NCBI GenBank assembly: GCA_965197585.1
Contig: OZ240215.1
Coordinates: 3,136,001-3,200,000, forward strand
Reading direction: 5' to 3'
Length of the DNA stretch: 64,000 bases
Origin: Dehalococcoidia bacterium
Lineage (GTDB): Bacteria > Chloroflexota > Dehalococcoidia > Plut-88900
Shown here: piece after piece, positions 24,985 to 63,030 of the stretch
Layout: every line of letters begins with the position of its first letter
How positions within the stretch are numbered: position 1 is the stretch's first letter
Made by a program: the position numbers and the translations under genes
The notes under the pieces: model-generated
The model's database searches: none
Seen by the model: only the letters and a program-made list of their open reading frames with translations
Told to the model about the DNA's origin: nothing

Positions 24985-25744
24985 GAACTTGACCGGCTTT
25001 GTCAATGACAACATAGTCGAGTTTCACAAGGCTAGGCACAAATCTCTGGAAGAGCTTAAGCTTAAAAAGCTTCTAGAGAAGAATCCGTATCTCCTGAAGG
25101 CCAAATACTTGGAATCCGCTCCGGAACTAATCGGAGGATTGATGGATGCCTACCTCTCTTCATCGGAGGAAAAGCTATTCGGTGATTTTCTGGAAGGCTT
25201 GGCAGTTTATGTCGCTCAGCAAACGACAGGAGGGCACAAATCGAGTGCTCAGGGAATAGACTTGGAATTTATCCATAATGGTATTCATTACATCGTATCG
25301 GTCAAGTCTGGCCCGAACTGGGGCAACAGCTCCCAGCATGCAAGACAGACCGATGACTTTAACACTGCAGTTGGTAGGATAAAGCAATCCTCCCGATCAT
25401 CAAATGTTGAGGCCGTCCTCGGGATCTGTTACGGCAAAACCAGAACTACTCGTACCAAATCAGGATACTTGAAAGTTGTGGGGCAGAACTTTTGGTACTT
25501 CATAAGCGAGAATGAGAACCTCTATATCGACATTGTAGAACCCGTTGGTTATAAAGCCAAGGAATACAACGAGGAATACTTTCAGAAGAAAAACGAGGCA
25601 ACTAACCGGCTCGTGCGCGATTTCATCGCTGAATTCTGCTCACGGTCCGGAGCAATTGACTGGAAAAAACTAGTCCGTTACAACAGTGGAAACTTCAAAC
25701 TGGAGAAGTTCTCTACCTATTTTCCACCTCCTCCCAAACTGTGA
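24965..25744 (+). CDS. type II restriction endonuclease (PmeII-like)
   Basis: NPYL, SSEExxFG, GIDLEF, VKSGPNWGNSSQ; overlaps the MTase; lower GC. Confidence 0.75.
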   Translation: MQPLDIENLTGFVNDNIVEFHKARHKSLEELKLKKLLEKNPYLLKAKYLESAPELIGGLMDAYLSSSEEKLFGDFLEGLAVYVAQQTTGGHKSSAQGIDLEFIHNGIHYIVSVKSGPNWGNSSQHARQTDDFNTAVGRIKQSSRSSNVEAVLGICYGKTRTTRTKSGYLKVVGQNFWYFISENENLYIDIVEPVGYKAKEYNEEYFQKKNEATNRLVRDFIAEFCSRSGAIDWKKLVRYNSGNFKLEKFSTYFPPPPKL

Positions 25745-25869
25745 CGTCAACGCCCTTGACCCACCTGAACACCCGTACTGTCATCGACGCCGCTCGAACA
25801 TGATCCCCCGGTAGCGGTTGGCTATTGGCACATGGAGGCGTTGACGGTTGAGGGAATGGGATTATCTAA

Positions 25870-26034
25870 CTAGAAGATTGCTTTAAGTAAGTAACCCACC
25901 AAATTCTCCGGTGCGCCAAATCCCGAGAAAGATACGTCTGCTCCAAACAACGCGCAAACAATATCTGTCAGCGTAGCGACTGTGATAACGTAAAGGGCTA
26001 CGGGCGATTTTATTACGTTAATAGCGTCCAACAT
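25870..26034 (-). CDS. small hydrophobic protein (54 aa, below ORF-track cutoff)
   Basis: MLDAINVIKSPVALYVITVATLTDIVCALFGADVSFSGFGAPENLVGYLLKAIF; GGAAGGG upstream of ATG. Confidence 0.5.
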   Translation of the reverse strand: MLDAINVIKSPVALYVITVATLTDIVCALFGADVSFSGFGAPENLVGYLLKAIF

Positions 26035-26417
26035 GGATATACCCTTCCAATCTATAGTTCTATAACCTATTTTATCATACGTCAGGTGACCATCACCCCT
26101 TCCCCCTCCCCCTGGGGGATGGATTCACGCCATAGCCGCACTTACAGCCCGATTGGAGTCGGGAATGACGGAAGGAGGGATGGGGCTATGCCGGGCCTCC
26201 CACCCCACCCCATGCTAAAATTTCCTTGGAGGCCCTATGCAAGACGCACCCACCGCCGAGCCGGGACCCCTCCCCAAGGGCTTTGGGGCCGCTCACCCTG
26301 AGCTAGCTGAAAGTCCGCCGAGGCGGATCGAAGGGTCGAGCGGGGCGCGGCCCTGCGTTGTCAATCCGTCGTGGTTGTCCTCCGACAGTGACACCACCTC
26401 CCTCCCCCCTTGGTAAC

Positions 26418-26458
26418 GATATATCAGCCATGTTGCAGAGCAACATGGCTGATATATC
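26418..26458. repeat. perfect 19-bp inverted repeat
   Basis: GATATATCAGCCATGTTGC-AGA-GCAACATGGCTGATATATC. Confidence 0.9.
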
Positions 26459-26520
26459 AATAAAACAGGGCGGGTGGGTGGGACTTAACTTATTCCGGAA
26501 GGTCGGACGGCCCCTCCCCC

Positions 26521-26568
26521 AAAAGTGACACGAACCCCTTGACTCAAGCCGTACACATGTACTATATT
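26521..26568 (+). promoter_or_regulatory. sigma70-like promoter with LexA-like palindrome, copy 1
   Basis: TTGACT(26539)-18-TATATT(26563); GTAC-ACAT-GTAC at 26551-26562; conserved at 43314-43361. Confidence 0.65.
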
Positions 26569-26574
26569 CACCCC

Positions 26575-27130
26575 CGATAGGCCAATCACTATTCTCAAGA
26601 CCAAGGAGGAACCAAAAACCCAGGGAAGCCCACCTGACCCACCCGAGGACTCAACGCCTAAGCCCATCCCAACGGCCTTCGCGCAGGCCAGCGGCACAAG
26701 CAAACGTCGCCATCTCCTCATCCCATCGGGTCCCGTGTCCCTTCCCTGACTCCCAGGCGATGGATGGTCCACAATTTTAAGCGGCACGCTCCCCTCAAAG
26801 GAGCCCTGCCCAAATGAGCCCCGCTCACGCCGGGCCAAACACCTCGGGCCTTTACGCCCTTGGAAATATCTCCCCCGTCGTTCCCTTCGGAGACCCCCAT
26901 GCAACCAGCGACGGCAGCGAGAAAACGTGCTCCCCACCCCTCCGAGTGGGTCAGCCAAAACTGGTGGTAGAGATGCCCTCAAGCGAGAACCCCTCGCTTG
27001 TCTACCACGTGATAACAGAAGCACGGGGCTGAACCAGGCTGGCCTCCCGCCCCCTGAATCCGAGTCCCGGACCTTCCATCGCCTACTCCCCAACAACCAA
27101 AACCAAACTCCTACCACAACTCAATATCTC
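26575..27130 (+). ncRNA. candidate large structured ncRNA, copy 1
   Basis: Rod domain closed by CAGGGAAG(26621)/CTTCCCTG(26741); stem 26755-26770/27069-27084 encloses 298 nt; A/C-rich tail; no credible ORF; paralog at 43368. Confidence 0.65.
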
Positions 27131-27215
27131 AGCGGGCTTGCCCCCATGTCATCCGCGGGCTCCGCGAGGGATCTGGGGCGGGGAATTCCGCTCAATCGCG
27201 AAACACCCTCCCCCC

Positions 27216-34311: not shown

Positions 34312-34388
34312 GGGCCATTAGCTCAGGTGGTTAGAGCGCAGTCCTGATAAGACTGAGGTCCCTGGTTCGAGTCCAGGATGGCCCACCA
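34312..34388 (+). tRNA. tRNA-Ile(GAT)
   Basis: Full cloverleaf, anticodon loop CTGATAA, TTCGAG T-loop, ends ACCA; TATAAT just upstream. Confidence 0.97.
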
Positions 34389-40352: not shown

Positions 40353-40426
40353 AGCCCATCAGCTCACGCGGTTAGAGCGCAGTCCTGATAAGACTGAGGC
40401 CCGTGGTTCGAGTCCAGGATGGCCTA
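40353..40426 (+). pseudogene. degenerate copy of tRNA-Ile(GAT)
   Basis: Near full-length copy of 34312-34385 with C-C mismatch in acceptor stem, U8 to C, T-stem mismatch, no CCA. Confidence 0.85.
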
Positions 40427-43130: not shown

Positions 43131-43313
43131 ATTCCGGCCGCCGAGAGCCGGAATCCATCCCTCTCCCCCAGTACTGAATTAGAGGCCCACGTGCGTGCAG
43201 AGTACGCACGTGGGCCTCTATTCTTATCTTCCCCTCTCCCTTAATGGCCCTAAGGGAGAGGGGGATTAAGGGGGTGAGGGTTCCCCGGTGGGGCTGGGGG
43301 CGGTGTTCCCCCA

Positions 43314-43361
43314 AAAAGTGACACGAACCCCTTGACCAGAGTTGTACCTATGTACTATATT
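43314..43361 (+). promoter_or_regulatory. sigma70-like promoter with LexA-like palindrome, copy 2
   Basis: TTGACC(43332)-18-TATATT(43356); GTAC-CTAT-GTAC at 43344-43355. Confidence 0.65.
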
Positions 43362-43367
43362 CACCCC

Positions 43368-44058
43368 CGACTAGCTCGTCACTCACCCTAACTATCTCAA
43401 GGAGGAACCAAAAACCCAGGGAAGCCCACCCGACCCACCCGAGGACTCAACGCCTAAGCCCATCCCAACGGCCCATACACGGGGCCCGCGGCACAAGCGA
43501 ACGTCGCCATCTCCTCATCCCACGGGTCCCGTGCCCCTTCCCTGTCGGCAGGCGATGGAAGATGCCTGGACAGAGCCGTAGTGGACCGGCCATACCCCGC
43601 CGAGACCCCGTCTCGGTGGTCGGTTAGCAGCGAGCTTACGCTTTATCAAGCAAGGGGTGGCGGACCGGCTATCCCCGGCCGAGACTCCCTCTCGGAGGTT
43701 GGCCCGCCTGCGAGCTTACGCCATATCAAGCAAGGGGCTGATGGGCCGCCTGGACCCTCGGGTGGCCCACGTAAATACGAAATCTGAGGGGGCTACTGCC
43801 CGATCACTGGCCCCCACCATGCCTGAGGGCATTCAGAGGCGGGGTCACAGCCGGACTATCTCCCCGGAGAGTCCGAGTTTATCATCGAGCATTAGGGGTG
43901 GCAGGGCTTCCAGGCCTCGGAGCAGCCTAACAACCGCCAGAAACTCGGGGCAAAACCGTCCGGCCAGCACCTTCCATCGCCTGCCCCTCCCAAACAAACC
44001 AAAACCCCACAATCGAAGATCCGCCTCAGGAGGACTGAATAAAAGCAGTCCCTCGGCG
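43368..44058 (+). ncRNA. candidate large structured ncRNA, copy 2
   Basis: Rod domain CAGGGAAG(43417)/CTTCCCTG(43537); stem 43547-43565/43967-43985 encloses 401 nt of hairpins; A/C-rich tail; 3' hairpin 44021-44057. Confidence 0.65.
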
Positions 44059-52278: not shown

Positions 52279-53595
<1,317 letters not shown>

Positions 53596-62931: not shown

Positions 62932-63030
62932 TGGCGGGAGCGGGAGGGAGTCGAACCCACCGTGGACGCCGAAGGGCGCCCACCGGACGGATTTGAAGTC
63001 CGCGGAGCCCACCGGGACCCATCCGCTCCC
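62932..63030 (-). tRNA. selC: tRNA-Sec(TCA)
   Basis: 8-bp acceptor GGGAGCGG/CCGCTCCC, anticodon loop CTTCAAA, extended D stem, long variable arm, GCCA end. Confidence 0.93.

Follow-up and report, generated by a model that had tools for sequence, protein, structure and literature searches.

A family of modular intergenic elements in one Dehalococcoidia genus, each probably a gene for a large structured non-coding RNA

The two copies in the window and their relatives

The stretch of DNA analysed here (hereafter the window) comprises 64,000 nucleotides (nt) of a Dehalococcoidia bacterium, namely positions 3,136,001 to 3,200,000 of contig OZ240215.1 (assembly GCA_965197585.1), and holds two copies of an intergenic element of about 0.8 kb. 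Copy 1 has a restriction-modification pair and an NAD synthetase as neighbours, and copy 2 an IS3-type integrase and an inositol-1-phosphate synthase (Pfam). We consider each copy to be probably an independent gene for a structured non-coding RNA of ~0.55–0.8 kb, carried on a modular intergenic element of one Dehalococcoidia genus. The parts of both copies are as follows.

26521–26568 (+): copy 1 promoter P1, with a GTGACAC motif (26525–26531), a −35 box TTGACT (26539–26544) and a −10 box TATATT (26563–26568)
26569–26602 (+): copy 1 leader, one of three leader types; predicted start near 26575, judged from the −10 box
26603–26620 (+): copy 1 AAGGAGG (26603–26609) plus AACCAAAAAC, with no start codon after it; a putative STAB-SD-like 5′ stabiliser
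26621–26748 (+): copy 1 rod-shaped handle, with helices H1–H4, a three-way junction with hairpins H5 and H6, and the conserved unpaired CUCAACG..AGCCCAUCCCAA
26755–26770 (+): copy 1 long closing stem, opening strand (AGGCGATGGA plus TGGTCC); its inner extension covaries with the domain type
26771–27068 (+): copy 1 multi-hairpin domain inside the stem, of type 3 (15 of the 136 unique domains), with RNA-library contigs over it
27069–27084 (+): copy 1 closing strand, GGACC, T and TCCATCGCCT
27085–27130 (+): copy 1 A/C-rich tail, ending in CCACAACTCAATAT; a putative Rho entry site, without the 3′ docking module
43314–43361 (+): copy 2 promoter P1 (−35 box 43332–43337, −10 box 43356–43361), from the alignment to copy 1 and the promoter scan
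43399–43544 (+): copy 2 AAGGAGG (43399–43405) and rod handle (43417–43544); copy 2 is L006 in the alignments
43547–43985 (+): copy 2 closing stem GGCAGGCGATGGAAG.. / ..CTTCCATCGCCTGCC with a type 2 domain that holds two internal ~80-nt repeats
43986–44044 (+): copy 2 tail, with CACAATCGAAGAT (44008–44020), one small hairpin module TCCGCCTCAGGAGGA (44020–44034) and CTGAATAAAA; without the 3′ docking module

The original prediction, made from the letters of the window alone, had described two paralogous elements built in the same order, and that order is borne out: the copies align, and in both the promoter is followed by AAGGAGGAACCAAAAACC, the rod, AGGCGATGGA, TCCATCGCCT and the A/C-rich tail. 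After a leader of 34–37 nt both read AAGGAGGAACCAAAAAC, and then comes the ~128-nt rod. AGGCGATGGA lies at 26755–26764 and 43550–43559 and TCCATCGCCT at 27075–27084 and 43973–43982, a distance of 320 nt in copy 1 and 423 nt in copy 2. The stem extensions that had been named can be read in the sequences of both copies, and the enclosed domains indeed fail to align with each other. The predicted promoters are equally present and of the sigma-70 type, as a promoter scan gives 10 of 12 consensus matches in each copy (TTGACT-18-TATATT at 26539–26568 and TTGACC-18-TATATT at 43332–43361) versus 0.2–0.3 sites in shuffled sequences.

The number of elements, on the other hand, had been set too low. A blastn search with a 169-nt handle query, one of the checks originally proposed, finds 57 copies in the genome to which the window belongs (3.43 Mb, a single contig); a 58th, divergent copy lies beyond these matches. 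The closing motif (with at most one mismatch) follows the handle start by 472–694 nt in 57 of 57 copies, no ORF-sized insert (ORF, open reading frame) occurs in the enclosed part of any of them, and the blastn matches in the genome include no truncated relics. By the same method, tens of copies are found in eight of eight other genomes of the genus, giving about 40–80 copies per genome, whereas the handle is found in none of three other genera of the family and in none of 29 other families of the class. Of 151 genomes sampled from the class, six have matches to a covariance model (CM) of the handle, and all six belong to this genus. An exact-pattern scan of 185,579 species genomes finds at least eight assemblies, and the matches listed are all ‘MAG: Dehalococcoidia bacterium’ records; the same pattern has no match in a viral collection and is found on five short contigs of one assembly in a metagenome collection. 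Public sequencing runs with the element sequence include RNA libraries labelled sponge metagenome. Among the genera searched, the element is thus specific to one Dehalococcoidia genus.

The family had been predicted to be undescribed, and the searches agree. Rfam 15 at the gathering threshold gives, over the whole window, only three tRNA matches and a selenocysteine tRNA (tRNA-Sec), and at E values up to 10 both copies yield only chance-level matches, outside the copies or below threshold. The motifs of the element were not found in the literature searched, whose general surveys of structured RNAs did not include Dehalococcoidia.

A covarying handle and a closed domain, present in RNA libraries and non-coding

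To examine the handle, 80 of the 96 unique handles were aligned, the 16 of at least 176 nt (with insertions) being left out. On plain MAFFT alignments, in which indels shift the covarying helices out of register, RNAalifold gave poor structures; these were replaced by helices drawn by hand on copy 1, from which a covariance model was built and 101 matches from 100 loci (98 distinct) were re-aligned, with L103–L123 left out. In this alignment 88.9% of the cells are paired, versus 38–56% when the partners are slid by one to three columns. Eighteen of the 31 pairs change on both sides (129 cells versus 32 in shuffles), and none of 500 shuffles reaches any of five covariation measures. As the alignment was fitted to the drawn structure, the covariation numbers lean towards it, and comparison with the slid partners is the fairer test. 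Covariation is clear in H1, H3 and the apical hairpin H5, while H4 (GAGGA/UCCUC) is invariant and H6 is weak. For example, GACCC/GGGTC is replaced by GGCC/GGCC, and the apical stem GGCC[C]T/AGGCC (the bracketed C mostly bulged) by GGGCGG/CCGCCC or GGTCGC/GCGACC. Overall, the handles come in at least two covarying flavours.

The closing stem measures 15–20 bp and surrounds a multi-hairpin domain of 290–530 nt. Its 10-nt arms are invariant, and its inner extension varies with the domain type (GACGC/GCGTC, GGTCC/GGACC or GAAGCCC/GGGCCTC). Compensatory changes are also seen in local hairpins of domain types 2 and 3. The single-sequence fold of copy 1 (26576–27130, + strand) reproduces both the rod and the closing stem that had been proposed, and for this fold z = −5.32, with none of 100 shuffles as stable, versus z = −2.97 on the − strand.

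At seven loci from other genomes of the genus (L046, L104, L087, L090, L100, L116 and L044), two handle matches 87–175 nt apart have a single 3′ end in common, the handle having been partly duplicated in tandem. A tail motif, ATCGAAGATGGAAC (L016:2142–2226 and many other tails), is complementary to the closing strand of the stem with one mismatch in 10–17 nt, so that an alternative pairing that opens the stem is possible. CCTCC-like runs, present in 28 of 57 tails, could pair with the 5′ AAGGAGG. On the minus strand, 26620–26637 and 43416–43433 contain the rod base and then GTTTTTGGTT, and both copies were scanned as terminator-like there; the rod and its U-tract could stop antisense transcription from the convergent nadE or inositol-phosphate synthase gene.

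Contigs from four RNA libraries cover 26672–27094 and bridge the junctions between handle and domain and between domain and closing stem without a joint. The suggestion that the domain is excised or circularised at the closing stem is thereby not supported, as the contigs run on over both stem junctions and no joint is reported there. They leave 25700–26555 and the 5′ half of the handle (26556–26662) essentially uncovered, and several of them start at 26672–26696, which could reflect either processing in the junction strand with loss of a ~95-nt 5′ piece or assembly breaks in the most repeated part. Cover of the neighbouring genes is sparse too, and for the same reason it carries no weight here.

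As for the strand, four features favour the + strand: P1 points that way, the fold has its stronger z-score there, the unpaired regions are rich in A/C rather than G/U, and the promoter is conserved in the pattern given below. The G–U pairs that had been held to favour it do not do so: G·U and A·C cells number 93 and 154 in the handle helices (48 of the latter from one bulge column) and 63 and 66 in the domain helices predicted on both strands, beside 4889 Watson-Crick cells.

The earlier judgement that there is no credible ORF holds: no reading frame is conserved and substitutions show no three-base periodicity. Terminal inverted repeats are absent. Within one domain type the longest ORFs do not agree in strand, start or length. 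In the 72-aa frame of copy 1 the three codon positions have 35, 32 and 38 substitutions, and single-base indels occur inside the conserved handle. An ORF of 210 aa on the minus strand has no Pfam match; as this strand is A-poor, long open frames are expected from its composition.

The promoter is conserved in a telling pattern. When the 57 copies are aligned, conservation reaches 90% or more at TTGAC and most −10 positions and 30–70% at most spacer positions; hexamers that are so much more conserved than the spacer argue for a working promoter, beyond mere recent copying. A strict regular expression for the promoter is matched by 37 of 57 copies, the others carrying a variant −10 box. The promoter type (GTGACA, 6–9 nt, TTGAC, 16–19 nt, TRNNNT) has 66 genomic occurrences: 49 lie in elements, ~14 precede a second repeat family, and one stands immediately in front of a tRNA gene. 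The leaders fall into three types, each with a short perfect palindrome, and are not locus-specific; a locus-specific ‘guide’ in the variable leader, considered as a candidate, is ruled out by these three common types.

AAGGAGG is invariant in 80 of 80 aligned scaffolds. In both window copies no ATG, GTG or TTG follows it at the usual spacing, and the handle indels break any frame. The genome encodes RNase J (565 bits versus a cut-off of 400), and RNase E/G was not found in it. In sequence this combination (a strong Shine-Dalgarno-like motif without a start codon near the 5′ end, in an RNase J-bearing organism) resembles STAB-SD. At the other end, the tails consist of 42% A, 38.5% C, 11% G and 9% T, with a median C/G ratio of 3.5 and a median of 76% of positions unpaired in the minimum free energy fold. 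They thus have the composition of a rut site (C-rich, G-poor and unstructured), and a Rho gene is present. Between zero and three small hairpin modules are found in the tails, and the same 22-nt module has also been inserted in H6 of some handles (a strict genome-wide pattern for it gave three matches, was too narrow and was not used).

Position in the genome and exchange of modules

The elements lie mainly upstream of genes. In 45 of 57 copies the gene downstream has the same orientation as the element (binomial p = 6.6e-6), gene orientation being taken from a crude home-made gene caller, and 33 of 57 copies are in divergent intergenic regions versus 23% of intergenic regions genome-wide. The other copies lie between co-directional genes (12 sense and 4 antisense) or between convergent genes (8, including both window copies). 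The downstream genes are unrelated and include uvrA, leuS, glnS, def, ribF, proA, lgt, eight amidohydrolase paralogues, oxidoreductases and transporters. As to the direction of replication, 21 of 57 elements share one orientation, a count that is uninformative because the GC skew is weak and the genes have no strand bias (1462/2913 by strand).

In full-length copies the tail is followed by a 25-nt module (GTCACTAAYCTACCGAACGAGTACA), five locus-specific bases, a −35-like hexamer and, ~17 nt further on, a −10-like hexamer. Among 67 rows with the module, taken from 153 unique copy windows, at least four of six matches to TTGACA stand at exactly +5 in 42, versus 0–2 at the other offsets from 0 to 11; five loci are counted twice here and ~4 rows are false module matches, and the count without duplicates is 38 of 62. 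The module has 26 occurrences in the genome, every one of them in an element, so it is a part of the element and no general promoter feature. Natural empty sites at leuS (genome G001) and uvrA (G003) have kept the five bases and the −35 box; the host promoter is thus native, and the element ends at about −41.

The element is found upstream of leuS in eight of nine genomes and upstream of uvrA in eight of nine. Of 28 copies in other genomes with both flanks mapped in genome G000, 20 are occupied there and eight are not. The sites are old. Comparisons of empty and filled sites define the right junction and give no clean left junction and no clean duplication; at L048 (filled) and the corresponding G000 site, the upstream repeat cluster differs and no clean empty site is seen.

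The enclosed domain had been thought to be either exchangeable or fast-evolving. The second alternative does not fit, as the domains of 156 copy windows (136 unique) form 15 discrete, conserved types, with copy 1 in type 3 (15 members) and copy 2 in type 2 (16 members). The copy 1 domain is 99.4–99.7% identical to the domains at two other loci, whose handles are 84–87% identical to that of copy 1 and whose tails are unrelated. The proposed architecture of a fixed handle with an exchangeable, stem-enclosed domain in a large, modular, non-coding element is, in turn, supported. At 16 orthologous sites, with flanks 72–99% identical in the site mapping, 11 pairs have the same domain type (identity 0.90–0.99) and five have an unrelated one (0.46–0.52); four further shared sites of strongly different spacing were left out. 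Upstream of leuS at least four domain types are found across species of the genus, and the near-identity tract of copy 1 stops at the closing stem. At several orthologous sites the promoter or handle has been replaced and the domain kept, and at the leuS sites of two species the apical part of the handle is deleted with the basal pairing retained. Promoter/leader, handle and tail are thus exchanged piece by piece among copies just as the domain is. The original prediction had noted neither this nor the confinement to one genus, nor the preferred place and direction of the elements just ahead of host promoters.

Other repeats surround the elements. The second repeat family, with ~14 copies, uses the same promoter type (e.g., G000:C1 1590859, 684518(−), 2280200, 3386770(−), 62860, 3022084, 3035253(−), 3062928(−) and others; loci L157 and L158). 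It has a distinct conserved 5′ part of ~200 nt (ending in ...AAAGGAGTCCCATGAGTCGCAC), a variable body and similar A/C-rich tail pieces, and no Rfam match; its ‘ORFs’ are P/R/S-rich and variable in length, so the family is probably non-coding as well. In the window, 26420–26456 holds a 17-bp perfect hairpin (ATATATCAGCCATGTTGC...) which, with its surroundings, is a repeated module found before three elements (also at G000 1397331 and 3412352); in two of the three places an IS110-family element is inserted just upstream. Before copy 2, a 19-bp GC-rich hairpin with a T-tract (43180–43220, terminator-like) and a CCCTCTCCC...GGGAGAGGG hairpin (43228–43264) form a REP-like cluster of a kind common before the element promoter. 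The same modules occur upstream of leuS in several genomes, and the cluster is retained at the empty leuS site of G001. Nine IS110-family elements insert into a REP-like hairpin, which is often found near the elements described here. The GTCATTCCGAGGC..CGCGAGGAATC-type hairpin repeat (window 27146–27180) is such an insertion site, with IS110 copies at G000 1396256, 2811654(−), 2899851(−), 3413422(−), 974514(−), 1486302 and 2797109(−). These IS110-family elements have a conserved 5′ non-coding stretch of ~190 nt that is a candidate bridge RNA, and two copies have an in-frame TAG.

Elsewhere in the window, a selenocysteine tRNA lies at 62936–63030 (−; 65.8 bits) and the Rho gene at ~52492–52701 (+). 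Two tRNA matches with the same anticodon loop, 34312–34385 and 40353–40426, stand ~6 kb apart (68.5 versus 42.9 bits); the second, lower-scoring one has a mismatched acceptor stem, and the pair looks like a tRNA and its partial duplicate around an integrated element.

What the element may be

If each copy is indeed an RNA gene, its life could run as follows. P1 would fire as a stable-RNA promoter, with transcription starting ~7 nt past the −10 box. AAGGAGG without a start codon may bind a 30S subunit and block the 5′–3′ exonuclease RNase J, as STAB-SD does, which would make the RNA long-lived. The C-rich, G-poor tail may load Rho, whose gene lies in the same window, and transcription would then end before the neighbouring host promoter. 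The copies are probably homogenised and reshuffled by recombination or gene conversion, with the handle, the 10-nt stem arms and the tail serving as homology. Finally, the 3′ module would sit at −41 to −65 of the host promoter, the place of an UP element, where docking is tolerated and perhaps useful to the host gene; this could be the one insertion point that leaves the gene working. Our best guess is that the RNA is an abundant, stable RNA that binds proteins or ribosomes or acts as a scaffold, and no locus-specific regulator. As no part of the RNA is locus-specific, a general role is to be expected rather than regulation gene by gene.

Several points weigh against this reading. The RNA contigs give no strand, no ends and no expression level, and all the libraries come from a single study. 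The counts of G·U versus A·C carry no strand information, and the helices are ~96% Watson-Crick, as those of a DNA-level hairpin would also be. Gene conversion alone, with no selection on an RNA, could keep promoters and helices similar. The orientation count depends on the crude gene caller, and docking is not universal, as 32 of 58 copies, both window copies included, lack the 3′ module. No enzyme or mechanism of spread was found, nor was a clean target-site duplication seen in the comparisons of empty and filled sites, and STAB-SD action, Rho termination and the UP-element role are putative, by analogy.

A bolder form of the idea is a promoter-docking RNA-gene cassette. Dedicated machinery would place the element exactly 5 bp before a −35 box, ~15 domains would be swapped into the handle at the 10-nt inverted repeat, and the abundant RNAs would make up combinatorial large RNA or RNA-protein assemblies important to the symbiont. 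We put this forward tentatively and regard it as rather doubtful.

Two other explanations deserve to be weighed in full. The element might be a selfish or structural repeat at the DNA level, a REP/BIME-, BOX- or MITE-like mosaic whose hairpins act as DNA (in single-stranded intermediates or as protein-binding palindromes) and whose RNA is incidental. It would account for helices that are nearly all Watson-Crick with G·U equal to A·C, for the wealth of other hairpin repeats that adjoin the element in this genome, for leader palindromes that resemble protein sites and for modular, shuffled copies like those of mosaic repeats. We nevertheless hold it to be unlikely. The promoter hexamers are selectively kept over a variable spacer, and the promoter type is common to a tRNA gene; the closing stem pairs and covaries over 300–500 nt, which requires a single strand; and it is on the + strand that the loops are A/C-rich and the z-score is stronger. 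The element is covered by RNA-library contigs, has no terminal inverted repeats and at ~0.8 kb is several times as large as such repeats are known to be. A MITE or non-autonomous insertion sequence recognisable by terminal inverted repeats was rejected as a candidate, as the best inverted repeat of a full-length copy is the internal closing stem and none joins the ends. We rank next, as also unlikely, a portable cis-acting expression module, in which P1 reads through to give a long structured leader or alternative promoter, or in which transcription up to the host promoter tunes it. This would suit the 45 of 57 copies that run towards the gene ahead of them, the constant 5-bp distance to the −35 box (suggesting a functional composite with the host promoter) and the promoter and terminator scans of the window copies, which found no intrinsic terminator at the 3′ end on the + strand. 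However, 12 of 57 copies, the two window copies among them, have a convergent or antisense gene ahead and yet are fully intact, the downstream genes (uvrA, leuS, glnS, def, amidohydrolases, transporters) keep their own −35 and −10 boxes and are functionally unrelated, and the RNA has no gene-specific part. A riboswitch or cis-regulatory leader was rejected on similar grounds: the host promoter lies between element and gene, the genes are unrelated, and 12 of 57 copies have no co-oriented downstream gene.

Far less probable is a guide or scaffold RNA of an RNA-guided recombinase or nuclease (an IS110 bridge RNA or a TnpB/IscB omega RNA) or a retron-like RNA whose protein is encoded elsewhere. 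The layout of a conserved handle with variable parts is reminiscent of such RNAs, the precise docking site hints at targeting, and the genome has nine IS110-family recombinase genes, two of them just upstream of elements. Yet the IS110 copies have their own, different 5′ non-coding region and end outside the element, and the variable parts come as few common types rather than locus-specific guides. The individual candidates were rejected accordingly. For the bridge RNA, the recombinase ends and 5′ region differ, the two neighbouring IS110 elements end before P1 and the other 55 elements have no recombinase nearby. For the omega RNA, the genome (92% complete, one contig) has no match to the TnpB/Cas12f TNB domain (PF07282), there is no Rfam HEARO match and the copies contain no ORF. 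For a retron msr-msd, there is no reverse transcriptase (PF00078) match in the genome; this was also one of the co-occurring genes that the original prediction had suggested looking for. We give next to no credence to a decayed or unusual protein gene, such as the 210-aa minus-strand ORF (26485–27117) or the 72-aa ORF (26814–27032). Copy 1 does have open frames, and in three near-identical copies the 72-aa ORF has a weak codon score by the crude caller, but the varying strand, start and length of ORFs within a domain type, the lack of 3-periodicity, the indels in the handle, the missing Pfam match of the 210-aa ORF and the A-poor minus strand that explains such frames all speak against it.

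Compared with known systems, the family shares traits with both mosaic repeats and ornate RNAs and belongs to neither. BOX elements of Streptococcus pneumoniae and Correia elements (CREE) of Neisseria are multi-copy, intergenic, often 5′ of genes, modular and transcribed, with stable stem-loops, and Correia elements can supply promoters. They measure ~100–300 bp and contain no self-contained RNA gene, and Correia elements have terminal inverted repeats and target duplications. They are the nearest mosaic intergenic repeats (background in PMC2229807). Like them, our element is multi-copy, intergenic, modular and stem-loop forming. Unlike them, it is ~0.8 kb long with its own promoter (482–703 nt from handle start to closing stem, plus promoter, tail and 3′ module) and has a three-way-junction handle, a stem closed over 300–500 nt, ~15 exchangeable domain types and a fixed docking distance to the host −35 box. 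It also differs from Correia elements in its lack of terminal inverted repeats.

Ornate RNAs such as OLE, GOLLD, ROOL, HEARO/omega RNA and raiA are several hundred nt long, have intricate folds supported by covariation and contain no ORF. They occur in one or few copies per genome, HEARO being more numerous but found beside IscB. The RNA of the element is likewise large, folded, covarying and ORF-less; in contrast, it has about 40–80 copies per genome in one genus, interchangeable modules and no Rfam match. Eukaryotic short interspersed elements (SINEs) offer a third comparison. They have a head-body-tail architecture and an internal RNA polymerase III promoter, and spread via RNA by the reverse transcriptase of LINEs. 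Our element has the same head-body-tail layout, high copy number, chimeric modules and an RNA gene as cargo, whereas its promoter lies upstream of the transcript and is copied along nonetheless. As no reverse transcriptase domain was found, it must spread as DNA; neither the 57 copies nor the 153 copy windows included an autonomous relative.

Insertion sequences are known for outward-facing promoters. In putative mobile promoters (promoter reuse), highly similar promoter-bearing sequence stands before many unrelated genes (PMC3575422). The element departs from this pattern, as its host genes keep their own promoters and the unit is a complete RNA gene that ends 5 bp before the host −35 box. 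Lastly, in the STAB-SD of Bacillus thuringiensis cry3A, a 5′ Shine-Dalgarno-like sequence is bound by a 30S subunit that stops RNase J (PMC4113751). Likewise, the element has a perfect Shine-Dalgarno-like 5′ sequence that does not start translation, in an RNase J-bearing organism. The AAGGAGG of the element differs in heading a non-coding RNA, for which 30S binding and stabilisation are putative.

In general, the case illustrates that entire families of transcription units, passed over by gene callers, can lie hidden between the genes of long-read metagenome-assembled genomes. Should the element be merely a mosaic DNA repeat, it would still be an extreme and instructive example of that kind. 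If the RNA-gene reading is true, ~1% of the genome of an uncultivated genus would consist of ~58 copies of a large ornate RNA gene absent from databases. This would be a new class of large structured bacterial RNA, with hundreds of copies in nine genomes from which its structure could be solved by covariation. Docking at 5 bp and the cassette-like exchange of domains would then be behaviours undescribed for bacterial repeats, and could reveal a new way of placing DNA beside promoters.

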